From positions 20,391 through 84,390 of the IMG/VR virus record IMGVR_UViG_3300003309_000010: a stretch of 64,000 nt of DNA. One strand, written 5' to 3'. Below, one piece after another: positions 3,223 through 32,073 of the stretch. Numbering within the stretch: position 1 is the stretch's first letter; the number at the start of each line of letters is the position of its first letter. The notes under the pieces are model-generated. The model saw only the letters and a program-made list of their open reading frames with translations, did not search any database and was not told where the DNA came from. The translations under genes were made by a program, and so were the position numbers. Source of the DNA: a virus.

Positions 3223-4052
3223 GTAAGGGTAAAGTTATTTTTAGAGTTAACCCTACCGTGTTGGAGGGTAAGCAAGGTATCCTCCCCAAAGACGACAAGG
3301 GACGATACATTGTGATGGTGGGGGCATACAATGCCAAAAACACCAGTGGGGATAAGTACGTCTTCACGCAACAGGTTAAAAATCTTTTTAGCAAGTCGGT
3401 GGCCAGAACGCGATGCGCTGATAAACAACTCTACGGCGAAGCAGATCATCCAGAACTAAGCCACTTCAGAAATAAAACGCGATCTTTTGAAGAAGCGGTT
3501 GCTATGTATATGGACAGACTCTGGGTGGTCCCCACGAAAAATCAAGCCCATCAGATACACGATTTCTGGTTTGAGGAACTCCCGGACAGAGTGGACGGCC
3601 AACCCGTTTACGGTGTGTTTAATCTGATATCGCCGATTAACGAGAGGCAGCGTGCTTCGCTGGAGAACCCGGAAGAAAATACTGCGTATTCTGTGAGGAG
3701 TTTCATAGACAAGGAGCCTTCACGGTTACAGGGATGGTTGGTTGAAACCACCGAACTGATAACGTGGGACTGGGTTACTAATCCGGGTATCTCTTACGCA
3801 GGGAAGTACAACACACCTGGATTGGAGTCTCAGACGTTAATCGAGTTCAACGACGGAATGGACGTGTTGATTAACGATGGGGTGTTCAGACACTTACAGA
3901 AGATGCAAGAACAACATGCCGCACTCAACCATGGAGTAGAATCCGATAATCACGTGATGTTAACCACGATGATTAAGGATAGGTACGGCTTTCGTGAAGT
4001 GCCCGATTTGGGCGCGACGCTGAGTCGTCAATGGGACTTGGAAGACCAATAG
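3219..4052 (+). CDS. Prohead maturation serine protease (phiKZ gp175-like)
   Basis: Motifs GAYNAKN, LYGEADHP (His77), AYSVRS (Ser158), TWDWVTNPGI; C-terminal GLE/GVE candidate autocleavage sites. Confidence 0.9.
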   Translation: MSKGKVIFRVNPTVLEGKQGILPKDDKGRYIVMVGAYNAKNTSGDKYVFTQQVKNLFSKSVARTRCADKQLYGEADHPELSHFRNKTRSFEEAVAMYMDRLWVVPTKNQAHQIHDFWFEELPDRVDGQPVYGVFNLISPINERQRASLENPEENTAYSVRSFIDKEPSRLQGWLVETTELITWDWVTNPGISYAGKYNTPGLESQTLIEFNDGMDVLINDGVFRHLQKMQEQHAALNHGVESDNHVMLTTMIKDRYGFREVPDLGATLSRQWDLEDQ

Positions 4053-5536: not shown

Positions 5537-5546
5537 GGATATATTA
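5537..5546 (+). promoter_or_regulatory. Putative early (virion RNAP) promoter
   Basis: Intergenic GGATATATTA, also found at 25249; resembles the phiKZ early consensus TATATTAC. Confidence 0.55.
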
Positions 5547-21215: not shown

Positions 21216-23555
21216 ATGTTAAACGCACTTGCTCGAGGTAAGGTAGCACACAACTACTTCACCTCAGTTTGGGGTAACCCAACTTTAGAACTGAATATCA
21301 CGATTATCCCCACCCGTCTTACTCAGTCTGGAGCAAGGCGAAATGGCGCCAATATCCGAGATATTCCTTTTATGTTCCCCGGCAATCTCGCCTACCATGT
21401 ATACGCAATTGGGTATTTACATTCTGGCCTGCTTCATCAAACAAAGATAAAGCAGGGGGAATGGCAACCCTTAGTCGAACTTATGCAGCAAAACCGCTCA
21501 CACATTCGATTGAGTTATCTGAATTCCAGAATCGTACCCGATGTTGCCAATTGCTATATGTTGGGATTAGGAGAGAACGGGTATTTCCTCATCGTACCGG
21601 ACGACGGTGTTGCCACAGAACTCCATGTCACCATTCGCAGTAGTAAGTTGACCAGTGCGCCGATTGCTGTCGACACTTATCCACTAACCGACCAGTATAG
21701 TAGAGATTTACTGTTTACACAGATAGATACCGACGCGGACTCAGAAATGAAAGAGTACTATGTCGATAATTATCTGATTGATGTTCCTACCCGATCGCAG
21801 ATTAATGCGGCCAACCAAATCACGATTATTGACGACACTTCTATCGGTAACATCATTGAAATACCGATGGAAGATCTGCACACCTATTCGGTGTCGGGAA
21901 CACGCTTTTATTTACTACATTACCCGACTATCCCCAAAGGGATGCTGTTCAACATCAACGATTTGTTCATTGTGTTGGTTAATCAGGGCGTTTGTTATGC
22001 TATTCATCACAGCGCGTATAAAGACACCGTAGTACGTTTGGCGAATAACGCTTGTGGACTTGCCACGGATGCTGTAGAGAGCGTTATGGCGTCTCTGGGG
22101 TGGACGTATGCAGGGACGCGTGTAAAACTCCTCTTAGGGACTAACACAAAACCCCGCCAAGCGTACAATTTCGATTATCAACGAATTTGGGACGCGATGT
22201 CTGACGTTCGTCAATCCGAAGTGTTGCGGTCTCAAGCAGGTAGTCCTCATGAGCTAACTGCGTTAGGCAGGCACGGAAAACCCACCAACAAGTTTATCAA
22301 TGCAACGCAAAGTGTGGTGAACGCTAATGTTGAGAATTTGTACGCCATTAATGAGCTGGACAGGATTTTAAATCGAGGCGTTAGAGCGGGCAGGGATATT
22401 GATAATTCCATGACAGATCTTGCTAATACGGAAGGTTTGGTCGGGATGCGGTTTATCGAAGGCGACTGGGTCGAAGATTACCCTCAAACGTTATCGGGTG
22501 ATGAGTCGGCGGTTTGGATTGAACATCGTCGTGAAACGATGCTCGATAGTAATTCGGTGGAGCTGTCTTCCTACCTGACTCCAGTGGTGTATAAAGCCGA
22601 CGGTACGTTTGCATCGGAAGGTGCCGAGTACACTGTCAACAACGGATTCATCTACCCGCTTGATGAGATTTACATCACCGAACTGCAATCTGCCAAAACC
22701 CTACATCCTACGTACGACGTTGCGAAAATGGAGTGGACCGTGCCGAATCTTAAGCGTTGGGTAGCGGCGACAGATATGCACGTTTTTGCTGACAATGTGT
22801 ACCTACACCCCGGTACAGATTATCGGTACACGGATACTGGGATTCAGATTTGGAAAGCGGTGTCGGTAGATGACGTAAAAATCAAAGCATCCCCTAAACT
22901 GGGTGAGTGCATCTTGGAACAAGGGTTTATTCGTAACGGTACATTGAGCGTCAACGGGAGTTACCTCGCTGAAGACCCTGACAACATCGCAATGTTTATC
23001 GGTGATAAGTTGTATCTGGCAGACGAGGTAGCGTGGGAGGAGGATTACCATCTCTCTACTGCTACGCTACCTAATGGTGTTCCTTACACTATCTTTAAAC
23101 GATTGCTTCATGAGTACGAGTTGACTGCTGATGAGCTTCTGGCGCTTCGTACTGAACATCAGTCGTTGTTGTCCAAGATAGGCACTTACCTCAATCTGGT
23201 CCCGCCGGAACCCATCACTGATGTCAGCGTCTACACGGATCATTATCGGTTGCAGAGTCCGTTCATGTTAATGTTGTTGGATAAAATGCGTAGAGGGGTT
23301 ATCAACTATTCCCCTAACTATGTTGTGTCTGTGGGCGTGGAATTTGCGTTAGGTCAGGATTTAATGCATCAGTTATCATCTGGTCTTGATCCGCTAACTA
23401 AAACTTGGGGAACCAAAGCGATCGATGTTATCCCGCATTTGGAGATCGATCCGATGCCGGTTACTTCAGACGCTTGGGCTTTCCTTGAAAAGGTTAACGA
23501 TACGCTGTTAGACGGGAAACTGCAACTAAATTCGTACTACAGGATTAAAAGATGA
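21216..23555 (+). CDS. Virion structural/baseplate protein (phiKZ gp27-like)
   Basis: 779 aa; SVWGNP N-terminal motif; synteny. Confidence 0.65.
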   Translation: MLNALARGKVAHNYFTSVWGNPTLELNITIIPTRLTQSGARRNGANIRDIPFMFPGNLAYHVYAIGYLHSGLLHQTKIKQGEWQPLVELMQQNRSHIRLSYLNSRIVPDVANCYMLGLGENGYFLIVPDDGVATELHVTIRSSKLTSAPIAVDTYPLTDQYSRDLLFTQIDTDADSEMKEYYVDNYLIDVPTRSQINAANQITIIDDTSIGNIIEIPMEDLHTYSVSGTRFYLLHYPTIPKGMLFNINDLFIVLVNQGVCYAIHHSAYKDTVVRLANNACGLATDAVESVMASLGWTYAGTRVKLLLGTNTKPRQAYNFDYQRIWDAMSDVRQSEVLRSQAGSPHELTALGRHGKPTNKFINATQSVVNANVENLYAINELDRILNRGVRAGRDIDNSMTDLANTEGLVGMRFIEGDWVEDYPQTLSGDESAVWIEHRRETMLDSNSVELSSYLTPVVYKADGTFASEGAEYTVNNGFIYPLDEIYITELQSAKTLHPTYDVAKMEWTVPNLKRWVAATDMHVFADNVYLHPGTDYRYTDTGIQIWKAVSVDDVKIKASPKLGECILEQGFIRNGTLSVNGSYLAEDPDNIAMFIGDKLYLADEVAWEEDYHLSTATLPNGVPYTIFKRLLHEYELTADELLALRTEHQSLLSKIGTYLNLVPPEPITDVSVYTDHYRLQSPFMLMLLDKMRRGVINYSPNYVVSVGVEFALGQDLMHQLSSGLDPLTKTWGTKAIDVIPHLEIDPMPVTSDAWAFLEKVNDTLLDGKLQLNSYYRIKR

Positions 23556-25195
23556 GTGTTGAATTATACCGTCCCGCGAAAGGGACACACAACCAATGGT
23601 TGAAAGAACAAATATACACTACCCCCGAAAACGCATTTGGTATTGAACGCGGCGGGGTAGTGCCTAACGTGAACGACGAAGTTATCACATGGATTGGGAA
23701 TGGTCGGTTTAGTGAGCGCGTAGTGGATGTCAACCAAGACAACACCTCAGTCTTAGCACCCACTACTATCGTTGACGGTAACGGATCGCCTATCACAATC
23801 GGAGCGGATATCGGCACTGCTCAGCTATTAAGCATGGCCAATCTATACCTCAACGACAAGAACAGTAAACTACCTGTGTCGGTGGATGTTCGAGTCCCTA
23901 TAACGGGCTTAGATTTACAATATGCTCGGTTATTCTTAGGGACAGACATATCCAACGCGGGTAAAGTCATCAGTGTGCAATATGATGAATCGGGTGATCC
24001 TATCGGAGACAGGTTAGAAGTCAGGCGCGTTAACCCCAGTGATGTGAATGATATCCGGGTGGATGTAAGAACCGGTAACATTATTCAGCTGCTACCTCAA
24101 GACACAGTGGTCACGCTTGTTATTTATAACTCGAACAATGGGCCTGTGAGGATATTGAATCTCACTGTGAAATACAATTCCTTGGTTGCCAACTTGGATA
24201 ACTCTGCGTTGTTTGTGAAGGATTTGGAGCTATCGCATCCTTGGGTGGACCCTCAGAACAGTCACCGTATCTTGTTACCGAAAAACATGCTACTTCAGTC
24301 CTTTTCGCCTACGGTGAAAAAGGTGTACCAAAACGGTAGCCGGGAACTGATACTGGATAACAACACCAACCTAACCATCGAGGGGTGGGGAGACTACCTT
24401 AAAGGGACGGTCGGGGATATGTTCACGATAGTCGTCAAGTATGTACTGGCGCCCGGTGAACGGAGTATCATCGTCGACCCTGTCTTGGCAAGACACATCG
24501 CAAAAATCTATACCGTATTGATTGTTGATAAAGGGGTAGGGGTCAACTATAAACTGTTCCCTCTTCTGGATTTCCATCCAGACACGGGGTACACGCTGCG
24601 TTGGATGTTGCATTTCTCGGATTATTCCAACCGTATCGATGTTACTGAATTTGTTGCTTCTAACACGCTGTCTCCTAGCAGTTATGGTGGACAACAAATC
24701 ATTAACTACAGTTTGGACTTAAACGATGTCACGGAGATTGCGTCCAACGAAGAGATAGCCGGTTCAGTGACGGTTGAATTACTGGCCGACCCAATTACTC
24801 AACCAACGTCTTTCAGGCTGTACGACACGCCCTCAGATGAACATCCTTATGGGGACAACATCATATTCCGATTGCGTCCGGGAATATCTCACTATTCTCT
24901 GGATATCACTTGTGGGTATACGGTGAAAGAAGAATGGTTAGATAGATTGTATTATCGCCTCAACCCGATGTACGATCCTCTACTGACTTCCCATGCACCC
25001 TTACCCACACACGTAGATGTGAAGGTGGGTAATGCATTGTTCACGTTTACGGTGGATAACTGGGACAGCTTTAAGAACTGGACGGATGCGCTCCCGGTAA
25101 ATGGGATAGGAGCGGATGTGACATTCTATATCCTAAACGGTAATAACGAACGATCATTCTTGGCTATGTCAAGAGTTTACATCGAAATAGTGTAA
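23552..25195 (+). CDS. Virion structural protein (phiKZ gp26-like)
   Basis: 547 aa; VVPNVNDEV, YKLFPLLDF; synteny upstream of the terminase. Confidence 0.65.
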   Translation: MSVELYRPAKGTHNQWLKEQIYTTPENAFGIERGGVVPNVNDEVITWIGNGRFSERVVDVNQDNTSVLAPTTIVDGNGSPITIGADIGTAQLLSMANLYLNDKNSKLPVSVDVRVPITGLDLQYARLFLGTDISNAGKVISVQYDESGDPIGDRLEVRRVNPSDVNDIRVDVRTGNIIQLLPQDTVVTLVIYNSNNGPVRILNLTVKYNSLVANLDNSALFVKDLELSHPWVDPQNSHRILLPKNMLLQSFSPTVKKVYQNGSRELILDNNTNLTIEGWGDYLKGTVGDMFTIVVKYVLAPGERSIIVDPVLARHIAKIYTVLIVDKGVGVNYKLFPLLDFHPDTGYTLRWMLHFSDYSNRIDVTEFVASNTLSPSSYGGQQIINYSLDLNDVTEIASNEEIAGSVTVELLADPITQPTSFRLYDTPSDEHPYGDNIIFRLRPGISHYSLDITCGYTVKEEWLDRLYYRLNPMYDPLLTSHAPLPTHVDVKVGNALFTFTVDNWDSFKNWTDALPVNGIGADVTFYILNGNNERSFLAMSRVYIEIV

Positions 25196-25204
25196 CCTTA
25201 AATA

Positions 25205-25230
25205 TAGGAGGGTTCGCAAGAACCCTCCTA
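25205..25230 (+). terminator. Hairpin with GCAA tetraloop ending the structural operon
   Basis: TAGGAGGGTTC-gcaa-GAACCCTCCTA; no U-tract on the + strand. Confidence 0.65.
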
Positions 25231-25248: not shown

Positions 25249-25259
25249 GGATATATTAC
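25249..25259 (+). promoter_or_regulatory. Putative early (virion RNAP) promoter
   Basis: GGATATATTAC contains the exact phiKZ early consensus TATATTAC; intergenic. Confidence 0.65.
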
Positions 25260-25318
25260 TACCTTGGTTATTTCTTTTAGAATGACAGATAAAATATTTT
25301 ATAAACTAATTAGGAGTT

Positions 25319-26041
25319 GTGATGACTATATCCAAAGAAGAACACGCGGACATGTTGGAGCGTTCTCGAAAAGATCGAGTAATCGAAAAGGTTAAAACCG
25401 CTGCCGAAGAGGAAGGGTTGACGCTGATATTTGTCGGATGTCGATTGTACGGTATTGATGGAGATAACTGCACTTTTATCACCGAAGGTGCCGACTGGGA
25501 CGATGCTTACGCTAAAGCAGTGCAAATTCCAGCAAAAGAACTGAGACGTAACGGGTTTAATCCTTTATCAGTTATCGAAAACGAAAAATGGTCTATCCCT
25601 CACAACACCGTCGTACCAGAAGGGCTCAAAATCCCTCCACGCACTTGGACCGGTGCAAGATGTACCCTCTCAAAAGGTGTGGTGGTCGGCGATCGATTTC
25701 GCTTGGGCAAACAAAGTATTGTAGGAGAAGGCTGTATTATCGGAAACGATTGGTTGATAGGCAAAGACTCTTTAATTATGCCAGACGTCCGTTTAGGTAC
25801 TGGCGGGGAAGTGGCTTACAATGCGACCTTTGACGTCCACACGATATTCGATTCGCCGTTTGAAGTGAACGGTGGAGGCGGTATCAGACACACCGTTGAA
25901 GGCAATAAGCCGTGGAAGGTGGGCATGTTTACTTGGGACGACAGTCCGTGTTACATAACCTTGACAGAATTACCTTACAGCTCCTCACGCTCAGGTTTAA
26001 AAACCCGTGTATCGCGGCGTGTCAGTGAACTTGAAAGTTAA
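25319..26041 (+). CDS. Hexapeptide-repeat (left-handed beta-helix) protein 1
   Basis: Run of [LIV]G-x4 repeats: VGDRFRLGKQSIVGEGCIIGNDWLIG; AGGAG RBS. Confidence 0.75.
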   Translation: MMTISKEEHADMLERSRKDRVIEKVKTAAEEEGLTLIFVGCRLYGIDGDNCTFITEGADWDDAYAKAVQIPAKELRRNGFNPLSVIENEKWSIPHNTVVPEGLKIPPRTWTGARCTLSKGVVVGDRFRLGKQSIVGEGCIIGNDWLIGKDSLIMPDVRLGTGGEVAYNATFDVHTIFDSPFEVNGGGGIRHTVEGNKPWKVGMFTWDDSPCYITLTELPYSSSRSGLKTRVSRRVSELES

Positions 26042-26058
26042 AACGGTTAATTAAGTTT

Positions 26059-26088
26059 AAAAAGAAGAGTTGGGTAGCTCTTCTTTTT
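26059..26088 (+). terminator. Rho-independent terminator followed by TATG
   Basis: AAAAAGAAGAG...CTCTTCTTTTT. Confidence 0.75.
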
Positions 26089-26139
26089 TATGCAATTTGA
26101 AAAAACTGTGTATAATTAAAAACCTAAGAGGATTCCAGA

Positions 26140-28275
26140 ATGGGAATATTCTTCAAGGAGGACTGGGACAAATACCCTAAAGCCATTCCCCACCGAAGTA
26201 CCAAAAATAGAAGCTGGGTCAACATGGCGGTGGTCCTCAAAGAGCAGTTTAAACTCGAAAACTATGAGTTTCATTTGGCCTTAATGGACCCCAGTTTGGA
26301 ACATGTGGATCCTTACGACCCCGATCTCCCCATGACCACCAGAGTACGAATATTGGTAGAGTGTGGTCAAAACGTGTGGTATTTTCTGCGCGAAGTCTTA
26401 CGGGTCCCTGCCCAAGCGGGGTTAGGTTCAAATCCATTTGGAGTGAATCGTTTTTCCTTGGCAGCGGTGTGGTTACATTACAACCATATTGACGCCGCCG
26501 CAGTCATATTAAGACAGGCTGGTAAAACCCTTGTGGCACAAGCCATGAAAACCCACTTGCTTACTTGTGTGATGTGGAACTCTAAACTATTGTGGATAAC
26601 CACAGACTCCGAGAAACGCAAAGACACCATCAGGGACACCAAGGAGATGTTAGATCTCCTTCCCGGTTACATTTACACCAGAGACCCCAAACTGGACTCT
26701 GATAATTTGATGGAAATCACAAACGTTGCCAGAAAGAACTACATTATCTATGGAGTTGGGCAAGCGGAGAAAAAATTAGCGGAGAAGAAAGGCCGTGGTT
26801 ATCGTATTGCCGAGAAGTTCTTAGACGAATTCGCAGAAACAAAGAACGCCCATCTTATCTTAGGTGCTGCATCCGGCTCTCGTAACGCGGTGGTTAAAGA
26901 AGCCAGAGCGAAAGATCAACCCTACGGTGACTTTCTCATGTGTACCGCTGGCGACTTAGCCAACGCAGAAGGACAGGCGTATTACACGTATTTGGCCAAT
27001 TCCGCCATGTGGAGTGAGGTGATGTATGACTGCCCTAATCGGGAAGCACTTAAAGAAATGGTCGCCACACAATCTGCTGACCCAAGAGCGCCCTCGGTCA
27101 ACCTTACGTTCTCTTGGCGTCAATTAGGTATCTCTAAAGAAGAATACTTAGAGAGACGGTCGAGAGCAATTCGTGACTCCAACGGCGACATGGATAAAGT
27201 ACGTCGTGAGGTAGATTCCATCTGGTCCATGGGCGGTAAGTCCAATGCGCTGACACCTGACCAAGCCAATGTAGTGTATTCTTCAGAAGTCGATCCAATG
27301 TGGACAGACGTACATCAAGGTAAGGTCATCATTAATTGGTACGCATCCAAAGAAGAGATAATGACCTACTGTGAGGAGAATGACGTTATTGTCGGGTGCG
27401 ACACCTCTCAAGGTAACGGTCGAGATGCGTGTTCACACACAGTCGTGAGAGTGTCTACTGGTGAGGTGTTGGGACGAGTCGATGTGTCAACTATCAACCT
27501 GACACTTTATACACAATTTTGTGTGTGGTTCATTATGTCTCTGCCTAAAGCACTGTTTATTATTGAAAACAAAGTATCTGGGCAGTCCATTATTGATGCG
27601 CTCATTGTTGCATTTGTTCAGTCCGGCGAAGACCCCATGAAACGGATGTACAACATGGTAGTTCAAGAACCTGAGAAGTATCCTGCGTACGACCACCAGT
27701 TAAATAAAGTCCATATTGGGCGACGTAAAATTGAATTCTACGATGTTATGAAACGAACCATTGGGTTCAGTACCAATTCTCAACTGCGTCAACAATTGTA
27801 TTCTCAGGCTTTACAAGAAGCGGTGCGTTCCAGCGGAAGTATGATCAGAGACAAAACCTTGTCGACACAGATGAGGTTGCTTATCAAAAAGGATGGGCGA
27901 GTGGACCATCCGAAGGGTGGACATGATGATGCGGTTATTAGCTATCTGTTGTGCATGTGGTTTCTTATTTTTGGTAAGAACTACACCCGGTACGGAATCC
28001 CGCTTAAACTTCCGCTATCTAAGACGGTGCGTACTGAAGACGGCTCTACCAGCAAAGAAGACTTAGAACGCCATCAAAACATCAAATGGTTGGAAGAACG
28101 CATCGAGGTACTGGAAAATGAACTCAGAGGATGCATTAACACCTTCTACGGTAGGTCGGTGGAACTGAGGCTCAAAGAAACGTATTTAGAACTCGAACGT
28201 CAAGGCGGTGAACCTAGGAACATTGCGCAGCTGCTGGATGATATTAAAAAATCAACAAAGAAAAAGAGGCACTAA
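26140..28275 (+). CDS. terL: Terminase large subunit (phiKZ gp25-like)
   Basis: Walker A RQAGKT, Walker B FLDEF, nuclease GCDTS...RDA and HPKGGHDD. Confidence 0.92.
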   Translation: MGIFFKEDWDKYPKAIPHRSTKNRSWVNMAVVLKEQFKLENYEFHLALMDPSLEHVDPYDPDLPMTTRVRILVECGQNVWYFLREVLRVPAQAGLGSNPFGVNRFSLAAVWLHYNHIDAAAVILRQAGKTLVAQAMKTHLLTCVMWNSKLLWITTDSEKRKDTIRDTKEMLDLLPGYIYTRDPKLDSDNLMEITNVARKNYIIYGVGQAEKKLAEKKGRGYRIAEKFLDEFAETKNAHLILGAASGSRNAVVKEARAKDQPYGDFLMCTAGDLANAEGQAYYTYLANSAMWSEVMYDCPNREALKEMVATQSADPRAPSVNLTFSWRQLGISKEEYLERRSRAIRDSNGDMDKVRREVDSIWSMGGKSNALTPDQANVVYSSEVDPMWTDVHQGKVIINWYASKEEIMTYCEENDVIVGCDTSQGNGRDACSHTVVRVSTGEVLGRVDVSTINLTLYTQFCVWFIMSLPKALFIIENKVSGQSIIDALIVAFVQSGEDPMKRMYNMVVQEPEKYPAYDHQLNKVHIGRRKIEFYDVMKRTIGFSTNSQLRQQLYSQALQEAVRSSGSMIRDKTLSTQMRLLIKKDGRVDHPKGGHDDAVISYLLCMWFLIFGKNYTRYGIPLKLPLSKTVRTEDGSTSKEDLERHQNIKWLEERIEVLENELRGCINTFYGRSVELRLKETYLELERQGGEPRNIAQLLDDIKKSTKKKRH

Positions 28276-28279
28276 TACA

Positions 28280-28684
28280 ATGGAGTTCGAACTTAATTGT
28301 AGAGGTGGGTGGATTATTCCTCCTGCCACCAAGCTCCCTGACCGAACTCGCATCGTCGCGTTTAGCGATATCGGCAAAGGGTGTACGATAGGTAAAGGAT
28401 CTACCGTTGGGAGAGGTTCTGAAATAGGACCTAATACGCTTTTTGAAAACCTTTGTCGCGTGCACGACAGTTGTATACTCGGGACAGGTATTACGATGGG
28501 TAACGCATGCGAGATAGACACAAAGTGTATTATTCGTGGGTTACTTACTACCGGCGAACGTTGTGTTATCGGAAAAGGTGTCATCGGGTTAAGCAAACAA
28601 AACGTGTTCGGGGTTGGAACAACTTTCTGGTATCACGGAACCAAAGTGGAAGTGTTACCTAAAGGGGACAAGCATGTCAGCTGA
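28280..28684 (+). CDS. Hexapeptide-repeat (left-handed beta-helix) protein 2
   Basis: IG-x4 repeats; Cys at residues 35,59,65,77,83,95 (all the same hexad position); AGAGG RBS; starts 4 nt after the terL stop. Confidence 0.8.
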   Translation: MEFELNCRGGWIIPPATKLPDRTRIVAFSDIGKGCTIGKGSTVGRGSEIGPNTLFENLCRVHDSCILGTGITMGNACEIDTKCIIRGLLTTGERCVIGKGVIGLSKQNVFGVGTTFWYHGTKVEVLPKGDKHVS

Positions 28685-29183
28685 ACTGAAGTTTATTCTG
28701 AAAACTGAGTACGACGATGACGTCAAAAGGATAGTGTTGGCGTCAAAACGTCACACGTACCTTAACACGGTAGACCTGCAAGATATTACCGCTGCTATCA
28801 CAGATAAAGATGAACGATTGGTTTTGGCTTATCTAGACGACCAAGTCGTCGGATACGTCAGAATTACTCGACACGAAAAGTGGACAAGTCGGTTAGGTCG
28901 GTGGTCTGTCTGTCCTATCTTCGTCGCATCAGATTATCAAACTCGAGGAATCGGTCTAAAACTCATTCAATGGGTAAAAGACAAATACGCACCTCTTGTA
29001 GCAACAACTGATGTCAGTAATCAACCATCGTGTAAGTTGTTCTTGCAGGCAGACTTTTTTGTAGGCGAAAAGTTCTACACACCTGAAGATGAAAAACATT
29101 ATTACGAGTGGGTTTACCCAGAATTGGGTCCCAATGATCAACTCAATCCGCTTATCGGACAAGGACTATCAAATGAACCTTAA
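28674..29183 (+). CDS. GNAT-family acetyltransferase 1
   Basis: VVGYVRI, IFVASDYQTRGIG (motif A), DVSNQPSCKLF (motif B); start at 28674 by GGGG RBS. Confidence 0.85.
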   Translation: MSAELKFILKTEYDDDVKRIVLASKRHTYLNTVDLQDITAAITDKDERLVLAYLDDQVVGYVRITRHEKWTSRLGRWSVCPIFVASDYQTRGIGLKLIQWVKDKYAPLVATTDVSNQPSCKLFLQADFFVGEKFYTPEDEKHYYEWVYPELGPNDQLNPLIGQGLSNEP

Positions 29184-29661
29184 ATTTAATATCGAAAAAC
29201 AACCCACGCAGTCGTTATACTCTATGTTTGTAGCGTCTTCGGAAACCAAATTTTTAACGGATATTGTGATTGAAGAACTCATCCGATCGATGAGTACCGA
29301 GAAAGAATCCATTATCGGTATTTATGACGACTTCTACTTGGTTGGGTATGCGCGTATCAGTATGGCCGGTTACAACTACACAAGAGAAGGGCGTTGGCAC
29401 ATCGGCCCTGTGTATATCTCTCCTGAGTATCGCAACAAGAAAGTCGGTTCAGCGTTTATCGAGTGGAGTAAAGAGCGCTATGATAAATTGTCCGCCACGG
29501 TGGATGTTAACAACGACAGTTCCAATAAGTTGTTCGAAACATCTGGGTTTAAAACTACAGAAGATGTGGAGTGGGGCGGAGATACCCCGTGTCACGAGTG
29601 GTGTTACCCGGCTATGGAGCATCCGCCTGAAGAAGTTAACGCGTTATTGGTCGAAGGGTAG
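29173..29661 (+). CDS. GNAT-family acetyltransferase 2
   Basis: LVGYARI, VYISPEYRNKKVG, DVNNDSSNKLFETSGF; start at 29173 by AAGGA RBS. Confidence 0.85.
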   Translation: MNLKFNIEKQPTQSLYSMFVASSETKFLTDIVIEELIRSMSTEKESIIGIYDDFYLVGYARISMAGYNYTREGRWHIGPVYISPEYRNKKVGSAFIEWSKERYDKLSATVDVNNDSSNKLFETSGFKTTEDVEWGGDTPCHEWCYPAMEHPPEEVNALLVEG

Positions 29662-29728
29662 CGGGATACCCGATTACGCGACGATATTACCAAGGTGATA
29701 AACATCAACGTAAACAGGTAATTTAAAC

Positions 29729-30400
29729 ATGAATAACATTTCAGATTTTAGAATCAACGCGTACGGTGGGTGGGTTGTTCCTAACCACATTACACTTAAG
29801 AGTGACGTTGACATTCCCGCCAATTCTATTTTTGGGGACAATTGCGTTATTGGCGCAAGTTGTGTTATCGGAGACAATGTTATCTTGGGCGAGAACTGCG
29901 TTATTCGAGAACATTGTGAGGTACACGATCGATGGGTGCTCGGATACAACTGCACTGTAATGCGTGGGGTCTCTTTGGGTAACGGCGGTATGTTTCTGAA
30001 CAAGGCATCGGTAGCCAAGGGAGTTTTGGTCGGGAAAGGTTCCACATTTGGAGCACAGAGCATCGCTGATTCGGTTTATACAACACCCGGAGTACATCGG
30101 TATGAAGTGGGGTCGTTAATCGTCTTCGAACCGGGCATCGGACATGATGGACTCACCGTTGATGATCACTACGGGTTCAGCGTCAACCCTAAAGGGGGCT
30201 TACTTATCCCGCCGGGGGAACAGTTATGTGCAGACACAGATATCCCGGCCCACAGCGTCTTGTCTGAAGGGTGTTTGGTTGGGGAAAACTCTAGTGTCGG
30301 CGCCCACACCATAATCTCTGATTATTGCCATATCAGTAAAAACTGCATCGTCGACTCGACCTGCATTATTGCTGATACGGTCACAAGAGATGACGCGTAA
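29729..30400 (+). CDS. Hexapeptide-repeat (left-handed beta-helix) protein 3, two repeat blocks
   Basis: Two units, each starting F-x-x-N-x-x-GG-x-x-x-P and followed by hexapeptide repeats. Confidence 0.8.
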   Translation: MNNISDFRINAYGGWVVPNHITLKSDVDIPANSIFGDNCVIGASCVIGDNVILGENCVIREHCEVHDRWVLGYNCTVMRGVSLGNGGMFLNKASVAKGVLVGKGSTFGAQSIADSVYTTPGVHRYEVGSLIVFEPGIGHDGLTVDDHYGFSVNPKGGLLIPPGEQLCADTDIPAHSVLSEGCLVGENSSVGAHTIISDYCHISKNCIVDSTCIIADTVTRDDA

Positions 30401-30408
30401 CTTCAGGG

Positions 30409-30430
30409 AGGCGGGTTACCGCCTTTTTTG
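30409..30430 (+). terminator. Rho-independent terminator
   Basis: AGGCGG-gtta-CCGCCT then a T-tract. Confidence 0.7.
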
Positions 30431-30447: not shown

Positions 30448-32073
30448 ATGGAACCGTCCAGTATCCCGTTCAATATTCAGCTAATGCCTAATCATAGAGG
30501 TGTTACCGAACACCTCAAACCTATCACTGCTCCCGCTTTCTATGACGGTGTCAGCACTAAATTTCACAAAGAAGGATTGTTTTCCACCGAGATATTTGGA
30601 TCGGTCAGTGATAAACGCCGCACCCAAACGTTTGCCTACATTGATCTCAACACAGAAATCATTCATCCTATTCTATACAAAAATATAGAAAAGGTGGCGG
30701 GGTTTTATACAGAGATAATGAGTAGCAAAAGCTACGCGGTTTGGGATGCAAAAATAAAACAGTTTGTTCCCTCTAACGCGGTCGATGGGCAAACAGGTTA
30801 TGCGTTCTTCATGAAACATTTCAAAGAAATTGATTTCGTTCGAAATGATTCTCCAAGACGCACGACTCGAATAGACGTACTGGAGCGGTATCGAGACACT
30901 GCCGTCTACGATTATTTGCTGGTTATCCCCGCTGGACTGCGGGACGCTGAAGAAGGCAAAAACGGCAATCTCACCATGGACGAGATAAACGATTACTACC
31001 GCTCTGTGTTGACTCTCGCCGCTAATATTGAAAAGGGTGATTCGGATAACGTATTCAATGACTCTACTCGCTTACTCATTCAGCGTAATTTTAACGCGAT
31101 ATATGACATTTTGTTTTCGTATTTGCGAGGTAAAGGTGGCGGGCTTCAAGGCAAGTTCTTTAAACGTAAGTTGGAACACGGTACGCGAGGTGTAATGACC
31201 GCTGCCGAGCATAACATGGAGGATATGCGTGGCCCACAACGTTTAGGTATCCATGACGTAGCCTTAGGGTTACATCAGTCACTTAAAGCAACTGTTCCAC
31301 TCGTTGTTAACGCATTCAATAGTTCTGTATTGGTTAGAGACGGATTTTCTGTCGATGGGCAGGTACAAGTCATCAACCCGAAAACCAATGTGGTGGAAGA
31401 GCGTAAAGTATCCCCTAAAGACAAGGAATTGTTCACCGCTGAAGATGGAGTGAATACGCTAATCAACCGATTTGAAAAGCGTAATTTCAGACGACGCGAA
31501 GTCAAGATATCAGGCGGTTACCTCGCCATGGTCTATGTCAACGAGTCTGAGGGTACGTTTAAAATTGTACGAGACCCACAAACCGTACCAGAAGATTTTA
31601 AAGCACAGCTCAGACCCATTACGTACGCCGAACTGTTTTACTATCTTGTTGCTCCGGTTATCCAAGGATTACCCACTTGGGTGACTCGTTATCCGGTAAC
31701 TGGTGATGGCTCTACCACGCCCAACGCTTTGTATCTTAAGACAACAGATAAAGGGTTACCTCTTAAAGAGTTGGGGGACGATTGGCAACCAGTTTACATG
31801 GATGGCGACAGGTATATCTATAAAGAATGGCCTTTGGTGGAACTGGACTTCTTTGAGACAGTGGCAGTGCATCCTAACAAATTGGCCGATATGGGCGGCG
31901 ACCATGACGGAGATACCAGCAGTGCGGATGTCTCGATGACAGATGAAGCCATCGAGGAAGGCAAGGCTTACATGAGCGATGTTAGTCGTATGTTTAAGGA
32001 TGGTAACCCGCGTGCTATCTTTAGTACAGATATTGCAAAATGGACGTGCGCTGCAATGACTAACCCACCGTAA
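30448..32073 (+). CDS. Virion RNA polymerase beta' N-terminal/catalytic subunit (phiKZ gp180-like)
   Basis: IPFNIQL, EGLFSTEIFG, GTRGVMT, catalytic GGDHDGD (DxDGD). Confidence 0.9.
   Translation: MEPSSIPFNIQLMPNHRGVTEHLKPITAPAFYDGVSTKFHKEGLFSTEIFGSVSDKRRTQTFAYIDLNTEIIHPILYKNIEKVAGFYTEIMSSKSYAVWDAKIKQFVPSNAVDGQTGYAFFMKHFKEIDFVRNDSPRRTTRIDVLERYRDTAVYDYLLVIPAGLRDAEEGKNGNLTMDEINDYYRSVLTLAANIEKGDSDNVFNDSTRLLIQRNFNAIYDILFSYLRGKGGGLQGKFFKRKLEHGTRGVMTAAEHNMEDMRGPQRLGIHDVALGLHQSLKATVPLVVNAFNSSVLVRDGFSVDGQVQVINPKTNVVEERKVSPKDKELFTAEDGVNTLINRFEKRNFRRREVKISGGYLAMVYVNESEGTFKIVRDPQTVPEDFKAQLRPITYAELFYYLVAPVIQGLPTWVTRYPVTGDGSTTPNALYLKTTDKGLPLKELGDDWQPVYMDGDRYIYKEWPLVELDFFETVAVHPNKLADMGGDHDGDTSSADVSMTDEAIEEGKAYMSDVSRMFKDGNPRAIFSTDIAKWTCAAMTNPP

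Follow-up and report, generated by a model that had tools for sequence, protein, structure and literature searches.

Why should the gene for the large terminase subunit (terL) of a jumbo phage be bracketed by genes for three hexapeptide-repeat proteins with a left-handed beta-helix (LbH) fold and for two acetyltransferases of the GNAT fold? The question is raised by positions 25249 to 30430 of the stretch of viral DNA analysed here, a window of 64,000 nucleotides that covers bases 20391-84390 of the 111-kb IMG/VR contig IMGVR_UViG_3300003309_000010 (completeness by CheckV, 41%). A preliminary description had read the five genes as one acyl-transfer module, with the terminase or terminase-triggered Avs-type immunity as a conceivable point of action. 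We confirmed that the five genes are real and clustered around terL, and we found that the link to terL is positional only. The interpretation that we favour, and to which we give about an even chance, is that the genes are accessory ones, peculiar to a small clade of uncultured phiKZ-like jumbo phages, and are not directed at the terminase, with the GNAT proteins acetylating and the LbH proteins acting as non-catalytic partners.

All five open reading frames are intact, and they lie as follows:

25322..26041, + strand: LbH1, 239 residues; Hexapep match, E 8.9e-8, 32 bits
28280..28684, + strand: LbH2, 134 residues, beta-helix only; Hexapep match, E 2.3e-10, 40.1 bits
28674..29183, + strand: GNAT1, 169 residues; Acetyltransf_1 match, E 1.5e-11, 45 bits
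29173..29661, + strand: GNAT2, 162 residues; Acetyltransf_1 match, E 2.7e-10, 41 bits
29729..30400, + strand: LbH3, 223 residues, with one LbH module at residues ~1-120 and another at ~150-223; Hexapep match, E 3.4e-16, 58.6 bits

An independent gene caller returned identical genes on two public contigs (239, 134, 169, 162 and 223 residues), and every Pfam score exceeds the gathering cut-off of its family, which is 27 bits for Hexapep (PF00132) and 20.7 bits for Acetyltransf_1 (PF00583), so that both the places and the two folds given in the preliminary description hold. LbH2 begins 4 nucleotides after the terL stop, as had been described, and overlaps GNAT1 by 11 nucleotides, an overlap of the same length joins GNAT1 to GNAT2, and a spacer of 67 nucleotides separates GNAT2 from LbH3. 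LbH1 consists of an N-terminal domain of about 90 residues that matches no family, an LbH domain and a C-terminal tail.

Part of this layout recurs in a related lineage, represented by the contigs L091, L097 and L098. The order on L091 is the end of a gp26-like gene, a hairpin, the 10-mer GGATATATTA, an orthologue of LbH1 (P0045, 70% identical and in the same slot), another hairpin and terL (64% identical). On L097 and L098, the C-terminus of TerL (79%) is followed after 3 nucleotides by an orthologue of LbH2 (133 residues, 45%), an 11-nucleotide overlap, a GNAT gene (P0047) and, beyond a gap of 16 nucleotides with no terminator in it, the gene of an RNA polymerase beta subunit (77%). P0047, which a profile built from GNAT1 and GNAT2 picked out at E 4e-27 among 1.84 billion representative proteins, is 36-38% identical to GNAT2 and 24% identical to GNAT1. 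The Pfam scores of these orthologues are 28.6 for P0047 (cut-off 20.7), 34.3 for the LbH2 orthologue and 24.4 for P0045, the last being just under 27. The same arrangement of LbH1 and of an LbH2-GNAT pair is present in the relative's contigs, and LbH1 together with the translationally coupled LbH2-GNAT pair is therefore a conserved core. The relative carries a single GNAT, and LbH3 is missing from its interval between terL and the polymerase gene; the second GNAT and LbH3 could thus be extras that arose here by amplification, and a loss in the relative is compatible with the identities as well. The linkage supposed in the preliminary description accordingly extends to LbH1 and to the LbH2-GNAT pair, but not to the second GNAT or to LbH3. 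The pair has also evolved faster than its surroundings, being 24-45% identical between the two lineages as against 77-79% for the neighbouring genes.

Beyond this lineage the five genes were not encountered. We compared 80 IMG/VR loci whose terL is 25-46% identical; for none of the five proteins did any of them have a homologue within 7 kb of terL, and a gp26-like homologue stood upstream of terL in 36 of them. Of 50 related contigs, no more than 2 had Hexapep matches, weak and far from terL, and the GNAT domains present in 18 of the 50 are neither homologous to nor syntenic with GNAT1 and GNAT2; GNATs are common accessory genes of jumbo phages (PMC7824862). For phiKZ there was no Hexapep or GNAT match in Pfam, in agreement with the earlier remark that no such module was known in phiKZ, and homologues of the five genes are missing from both phiKZ and the Halocynthia phage JM-2012. 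A neighbourhood search beside terL, which had been suggested as a check, thus gave one close lineage with the arrangement, but the 80 more distant loci, phiKZ and the Halocynthia phage lacked it. Broader searches yielded little: tblastn of the five proteins against 50,697 phage genomes returned nothing useful (at E<=1e-3, no match for GNAT1 and one marginal match for GNAT2), word-based searches of 5.8 billion proteins matched LbH3 and GNAT1 only to the window's own proteins, scans of IMG/VR with alignments of terL, GNAT and LbH2 found no homologue of an LbH or GNAT gene, a scan of JGI metagenomes gave only terL relatives of 26-31% identity, and scans of GTDB genomes found no homologues.

What occupies the interval downstream of terL differs from lineage to lineage. 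The Halocynthia phage has the order gp26-like gene, terL, one gene, RNA polymerase beta, and the one gene (L007:8184-8648; TSMG0118) encodes a protein of 154 residues with matches to the helix-turn-helix families HTH_psq and HTH_Tnp_4; phiKZ has two tiny open reading frames after terL. Because an unrelated helix-turn-helix gene stands here in the Halocynthia phage and tiny reading frames in phiKZ, the comparison suggests that the interval between terL and the RNA polymerase gene is permissive to insertion.

The signals around the genes bear on when each of them would be transcribed, and the candidates are these:

25205..25230, + strand: hairpin without a T-run, after the gp26-like gene; -20.1 kcal/mol, z -7.45 (about -7.5)
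25249..25258, + strand: GGATATATTA, candidate early (virion RNA polymerase) promoter of LbH1; enriched 10-mer, identical in L091
26059..26088, + strand: hairpin and T-run, LbH1 terminator; -14.2 kcal/mol, z -3.85 (about -3.9)
26097..26121, + strand: TTGAAAAAACTGTGTATAATTAAAA, AT-rich conserved element, candidate promoter of the terL unit; near-identical in L091, where the flanks differ
30405..30428, + strand: intrinsic terminator (hairpin, then T-run) closing the terL-LbH3 unit; -14.4 kcal/mol, z -3.5

On its gene (+) strand the 111-kb contig has 6 copies of the 10-mer GGATATATTA, where 0.23 would be expected; they lie at window positions 5537, 25249, 43650 and 43717, all four intergenic, and on the contig at -14757 and 65987 relative to the window. 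In the intergenic alignment with L091 it is retained letter-for-letter upstream of the LbH1 orthologue, and neither of the two genes scanned downstream of its copies matched a PHROG. Each jumbo phage that encodes its own RNA polymerases has been described as having its own AT-rich motif of ~10 nucleotides upstream of its early operons (PMC7598289). Because GGATATATTA is enriched, is conserved in the relative and fits this description, it is likely to be the early-promoter consensus of this phage. The 8-mer TATATTAC, which GGATATATTA overlaps and on which the proposal of an early promoter for LbH1 had been based, has 3 copies in the window where 2.75 would be expected, i.e. it is at chance level, and was dropped as a promoter mark in favour of the 10-mer; the proposal itself survives on the enrichment and conservation of GGATATATTA. 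A late-promoter-like motif upstream of terL, TTTTATG, was also considered, but was not taken up, having 20 occurrences against 23 expected and being absent from the relative.

The two hairpins around LbH1 are both kept in L091 with compensatory changes (GGAGGG/CCCTCC here as against GGGGGG/CCCCCC there, and GAAGAG/CTCTTC as against GAAGGA/TCCTTC), which supports selection on RNA structure. The upstream hairpin would shield LbH1 from transcription arriving from the gp26-like gene, and the downstream one, with its T-run, bears out the terminator that had been assigned to LbH1. LbH1 is thus probably an early gene that a hairpin insulates at either end. As for LbH2 to LbH3, this block runs to the hairpin and T-run that had been named as its end. 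Because neither an internal terminator nor a promoter motif was found within the block, its co-transcription with terL, as first proposed, is plausible, and its position would suggest late expression. A probable difference in the time of expression between LbH1 and the other genes argues against a single five-gene machine, and that part of the preliminary description is not retained.

The two GNATs are paralogous to each other (29% identity, E 4e-26). Motif A of the superfamily, Q/R-x-x-G-x-G/A, reads QTRGIG in GNAT1, RNTGVG in P0047 and RNKKVG in GNAT2, and the three proteins share four invariant blocks, GY.R, R.GRW, S.KLF and EW.YP. An AlphaFold2 (AF2) model of GNAT2, built on an alignment of 67 rows, has a mean pLDDT of 85, a pTM of 0.80 and the canonical alpha/beta fold of a GNAT, and Foldseek places it with probability 1.0 and TM scores of 0.6-0.7 beside many solved GNATs, among them SpeG, PaiA and ArsN. 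Because of the fold model, motif A and the invariant blocks, the GNATs look competent as acetyltransferases. No subfamily or substrate could be assigned to them, the neighbours being generic and the best NCBIfam match (NF007853) reaching 26 bits against a cut-off of 125; their remote homologues are of mixed kinds, RimI-, ArsN-, AAC- and PaiA-like.

The LbH proteins call for a different interpretation. They form one family of four modules, two of them in LbH3, that share an N-terminal cap in the module alignment, GGWxIP...D.DIPA.S..G..C.IG, and in the comparison of LbH2 with its orthologue the N- and C-terminal caps are more conserved than the central coils. At the column of the only candidate catalytic His, the residue is His in LbH2, Ala in the LbH2 orthologue, His in the N-terminal and Asp in the C-terminal module of LbH3, and Gly in both LbH1 and its orthologue, i.e. 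His in 2 of 6 modules. No whole-protein match to a named LbH enzyme family reached its curated cut-off in NCBIfam, the best scores being 65.1 bits of 207 for LpxD, 60.9 of 160.8 for NeuD_NnaD, 49.3 of 226 for LpxA and 31.6 of 400 for Vat(D), and these matches cover only the generic repeats; non-catalytic LbH families of Pfam (LbH_EIF2B, DCTN5, GMPPB_C) score about equally. Neither PglD_N, nor the N-terminal domain of LpxD, nor the C-terminal helices of LpxA was matched by LbH1-3 in Pfam as an accessory substrate-binding domain. Many LbH domains are non-catalytic, and LbH2, at 134 residues, is shorter than any LbH enzyme we know of. Because the His is not conserved, a substrate domain is lacking and the enzyme scores fall far below cut-off, these proteins seem more likely to be partners or scaffolds than enzymes, and the view that all three are acyl-CoA enzymes has become doubtful.

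Structural comparison of the LbH proteins adds some further observations. The Atlas model of LbH2 (pLDDT 0.58) resembles LbH domains with TM scores of 0.65-0.71, the best being to non-catalytic ones. The Atlas model of the whole of LbH1 (pLDDT 0.58) gave TM scores of 0.5-0.6 to proteins that combine PglD_N with Hexapep; a PglD-like architecture was nevertheless set aside for LbH1, whose N-terminal domain has neither a PglD_N match nor a clear structural neighbour. A DNA-mimic or anti-restriction role was likewise rejected, the isoelectric points of 4.8-8.7 being unremarkable. The AF2 model of LbH3, made from the single sequence, has a pLDDT of 54 with a C-terminal half of low confidence, and its Foldseek comparison with the PDB is meaningless. 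In VIA-align this model superposes on right-handed bactofilins with a root-mean-square deviation of 2.0-2.4 A and on LbH proteins with about 12 A, at similar Z; the handedness of a solenoid can flip in models built without an alignment, and that of the LbH3 model is unreliable. The linker of LbH3 (residues 124-158, positions 30098-30202) matches one blade of designed PQQ-like beta-propellers (PDB 8prs, 8pra), with a score inflated by the pairing of one query segment with four repeats, and this is probably a chance match.

Taken together, the reading to which we give an even chance can be put as follows. The LbH2-GNAT pair would be a coupled unit embedded in a late transcription unit between terL and RNA polymerase beta, and LbH1 a paralogue inserted ahead of terL, after the gp26-like gene, and transcribed separately from an early-type promoter. 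Amplification of the pair in this phage would have given two GNATs and, in addition, the two-module LbH3. The GNATs would bind acetyl-CoA and N-acetylate an amine on a host or phage protein or on a small molecule, and the LbH proteins would be oligomeric, non-catalytic partners or adaptors in the manner of CcmN, dynactin p25/p27 and the LbH domains of eIF2B. Their adjacency to terL would reflect permissive slots between core genes, one to each side of terL.

Several observations weigh against this reading. The relative is one lineage known from contigs of 1.6-3.6 kb from one other study, which makes for few observations, and the search of sequencing runs found no RNA run that contains the sequence. 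Motif A is only partly canonical in GNAT2, where Lys replaces the first Gly, and all three GNATs have Phe where the Tyr of motif B stands in many GNATs. LbH2 and the N-terminal LbH3 module each contain a VHD motif that is similar to the catalytic His context of LpxA and PglD, so that some copies could be active. This candidate was rejected as the catalytic His of those enzymes, since the His is not conserved and the HMMER alignment to LpxA has another, arbitrary register; LbH enzymes that rely on other catalytic residues could still exist among these proteins. A complex prediction for GNAT1, GNAT2 and LbH2 gave a score of 0.00, which is neutral on binding.

Other explanations have to be set against it. 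That all five proteins form one acyl-transfer system tied to the terminase, masking TerL from Avs-type sensors or acetylating packaging components, would explain why two lineages have such genes on either side of terL and why LbH2 follows the terL stop so closely, by 4 nucleotides here and 3 in the relative. LbH1, with its early-type promoter and hairpins, would however probably be expressed at a time unlike that of terL, the catalytic His is unconserved in the LbH family, and relatives at 25-46% terL identity, phiKZ and the Halocynthia phage included, package their DNA without these genes. Nothing we found supports an action on the terminase or on Avs-type immunity, and we regard this explanation as very unlikely. 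Decay is less probable still: GNAT1 and LbH3 would then be functionless duplicates, as might be suspected from the divergence of GNAT1, the most diverged of the set (24% to the GNAT of the relative), from the lack of LbH3 in the relative and from the low confidence of the AF2 model in the C-terminal half of LbH3, but both reading frames are intact, their Pfam scores exceed the cut-offs, and GNAT1 retains a canonical motif A, the family-invariant blocks and translational coupling.

An unlikely alternative, which deserves more weight than the two above, is that the LbH proteins and the GNATs are independent acyltransferases that inactivate small molecules of a coral microbiome rich in chemistry, such as aminoglycoside-, streptothricin- or streptogramin-like anti-phage compounds or polyamines. 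The best if weak matches lie in that direction, LbH1 with Vat(D) at E 1.4e-7 and GNAT1 with Sat4, PaiA and AAC(6') at E 1e-3 to 6e-5, and so do the match of GNAT1 to the structure of a streptothricin acetyltransferase (3pp9, E 0.003), the structural nearness of SpeG, PaiA and ArsN to GNAT2 and the VHD of LbH2 and the LbH3 N-terminal module. These matches, however, stand far below curated cut-offs (31.6 as against 400 bits) and cover only generic repeats or the acetyl-CoA core; the His is lost in orthologues, the registers of the LpxA alignments are arbitrary, and LbH2 is below the size of the LbH enzymes known to us. It is also conceivable, at a somewhat lower probability, that LbH2 and GNAT, expressed late, are packaged together with the virion RNA polymerase and, on ejection into the next host, serve at once as an acetyltransferase for host takeover, in the way of T4 Alt or phiKMV Rac. 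The pair does lie between virion and packaging genes (phrog_3430, terL, phrog_2986), with no terminator between it and RNA polymerase beta in the relative, it evolves as fast as would be expected of a host-facing effector (24-45% against 77-79%), and modification of the host's RNA polymerase by GNATs of phages is known (PMC7552054; PMC7824862). On the other side, neither a packaging signal nor a propeptide is recognisable, late expression is itself suggested only by position, and the placing of the subunit in the virion RNA polymerase follows the annotation of a relative.

Within the reading of the genes as accessory and the LbH proteins as non-catalytic, a more specific and, in our judgement, unlikely variant is a two-component acetyltransferase of a new kind, in which a beta-helix adaptor without catalytic function would aim the GNAT at a host protein of defence, transcription or translation. 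The adaptor could be a trimer of LbH2, or a pseudo-trimer of LbH2 with the two modules of LbH3. Because of the fast evolution and the amplification, such a pair might be an arms-race effector, possibly one delivered with the virion.

Comparison with known systems helps to place the pair. The accessory GNATs of phages, Rac of the phiKMV-like phages (PMC7552054) and the GNATs of jumbo phages (PMC7824862), are likewise small, single-domain, non-core proteins that are presumed to acetylate host proteins; the GNATs described here have no detectable kinship with them beyond the superfamily and differ in being coupled to an LbH protein, in lying within the terL unit and in being duplicated. DNA-modifying GNAT-fold enzymes of phages of the Mom type (PMC7261163; PMC13219725) show that the fold can serve counter-defence, and the likeness is one of analogy only: the GNATs have no Mom-family match in Pfam or NCBIfam, and neither a fused nuclease nor a sign of DNA modification was seen. 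With the LbH acyltransferases NeuD/PglD/VioB, LpxA, LpxD and the prophage-encoded NeuO (PMC3046976), the LbH proteins have the hexapeptide-repeat sequence in common, but at 134-239 residues they are at or below the smallest of those enzymes and lack a substrate domain and a conserved His. The non-catalytic LbH scaffolds, such as CcmN/CcmM (PDB 7d6c), dynactin p25/p27 (3tv0), eIF2B gamma/epsilon and the gamma-carbonic-anhydrase-like subunits of complex I, are short domains of LbH only that come as sets of paralogues and form hetero-oligomers, and LbH_EIF2B and DCTN5 do match LbH2 and LbH3. The homology is nevertheless limited to the shared repeat, and in the phage the partner would be a GNAT, in an assembly that is hypothetical. 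We know of no precedent for a GNAT partnered with an LbH protein.

Accessory GNATs are numerous in jumbo phages, with a known target for hardly any of them, and LbH proteins are rare there; a survey of 224 jumbo-phage genomes makes no mention of hexapeptide proteins (PMC7824862). Among the accessory acetyltransferases of phages, what appears to be new here is the LbH partner and the placing of a GNAT in what would be a late core operon, a layout that recurs in the relative. Such a coupled LbH-GNAT pair is a tractable two-gene candidate and could give nucleus-forming phages an activity, new in kind, that modifies the host or counters its defences; if the LbH protein is non-catalytic, it would exemplify a beta-helix adaptor for an acetyltransferase.

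As to the phage itself, an ENA scaffold of 211.8 kb and a Logan contig bear the same genes, and the only sequencing run that contains the sequence is of a coral metagenome, its likely source. TerL is 46% identical to that of the Halocynthia phage JM-2012, the nearest cultured relative, and about 33% identical to those of phiKZ and its relatives. From this kinship and from the tail sheath, gp26-like and RNA polymerase beta proteins of phiKZ type that the region encodes, we take the source to be an uncultured phiKZ-like jumbo phage. The neighbouring genes of the locus are:

23552-25195: gp26-like virion gene (phrog_3430), upstream neighbour of LbH1
26140..28275, + strand: terL, large terminase subunit, 711 residues; phrog_2, E 1e-33
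30448..32073, + strand: RNA polymerase beta-like subunit, downstream neighbour; phrog_2986, E 1e-164; 77% identical in L097

Two side observations concern other contigs. In the phiKZ-like contigs L021, L023, L026, L027, L028 and L046 (G008, G010, G012, G013, G014 and G028), a reading frame of 258-316 residues with a partial GNAT match (profile positions ~29-85) lies on the opposite strand, 6-7 kb from terL, and appears to be a distinct GNAT-containing gene that is conserved in that clade. On L097 (1917-3642), the frame of RNA polymerase beta stops at about residue 483-488, and a new reading frame follows at 3457-3642. This fragment of 62 residues has no match in Pfam; its segment GRYLISRNGKV resembles a NUMOD4 or homing-endonuclease motif, and a mobile insertion may split the polymerase gene in L097.

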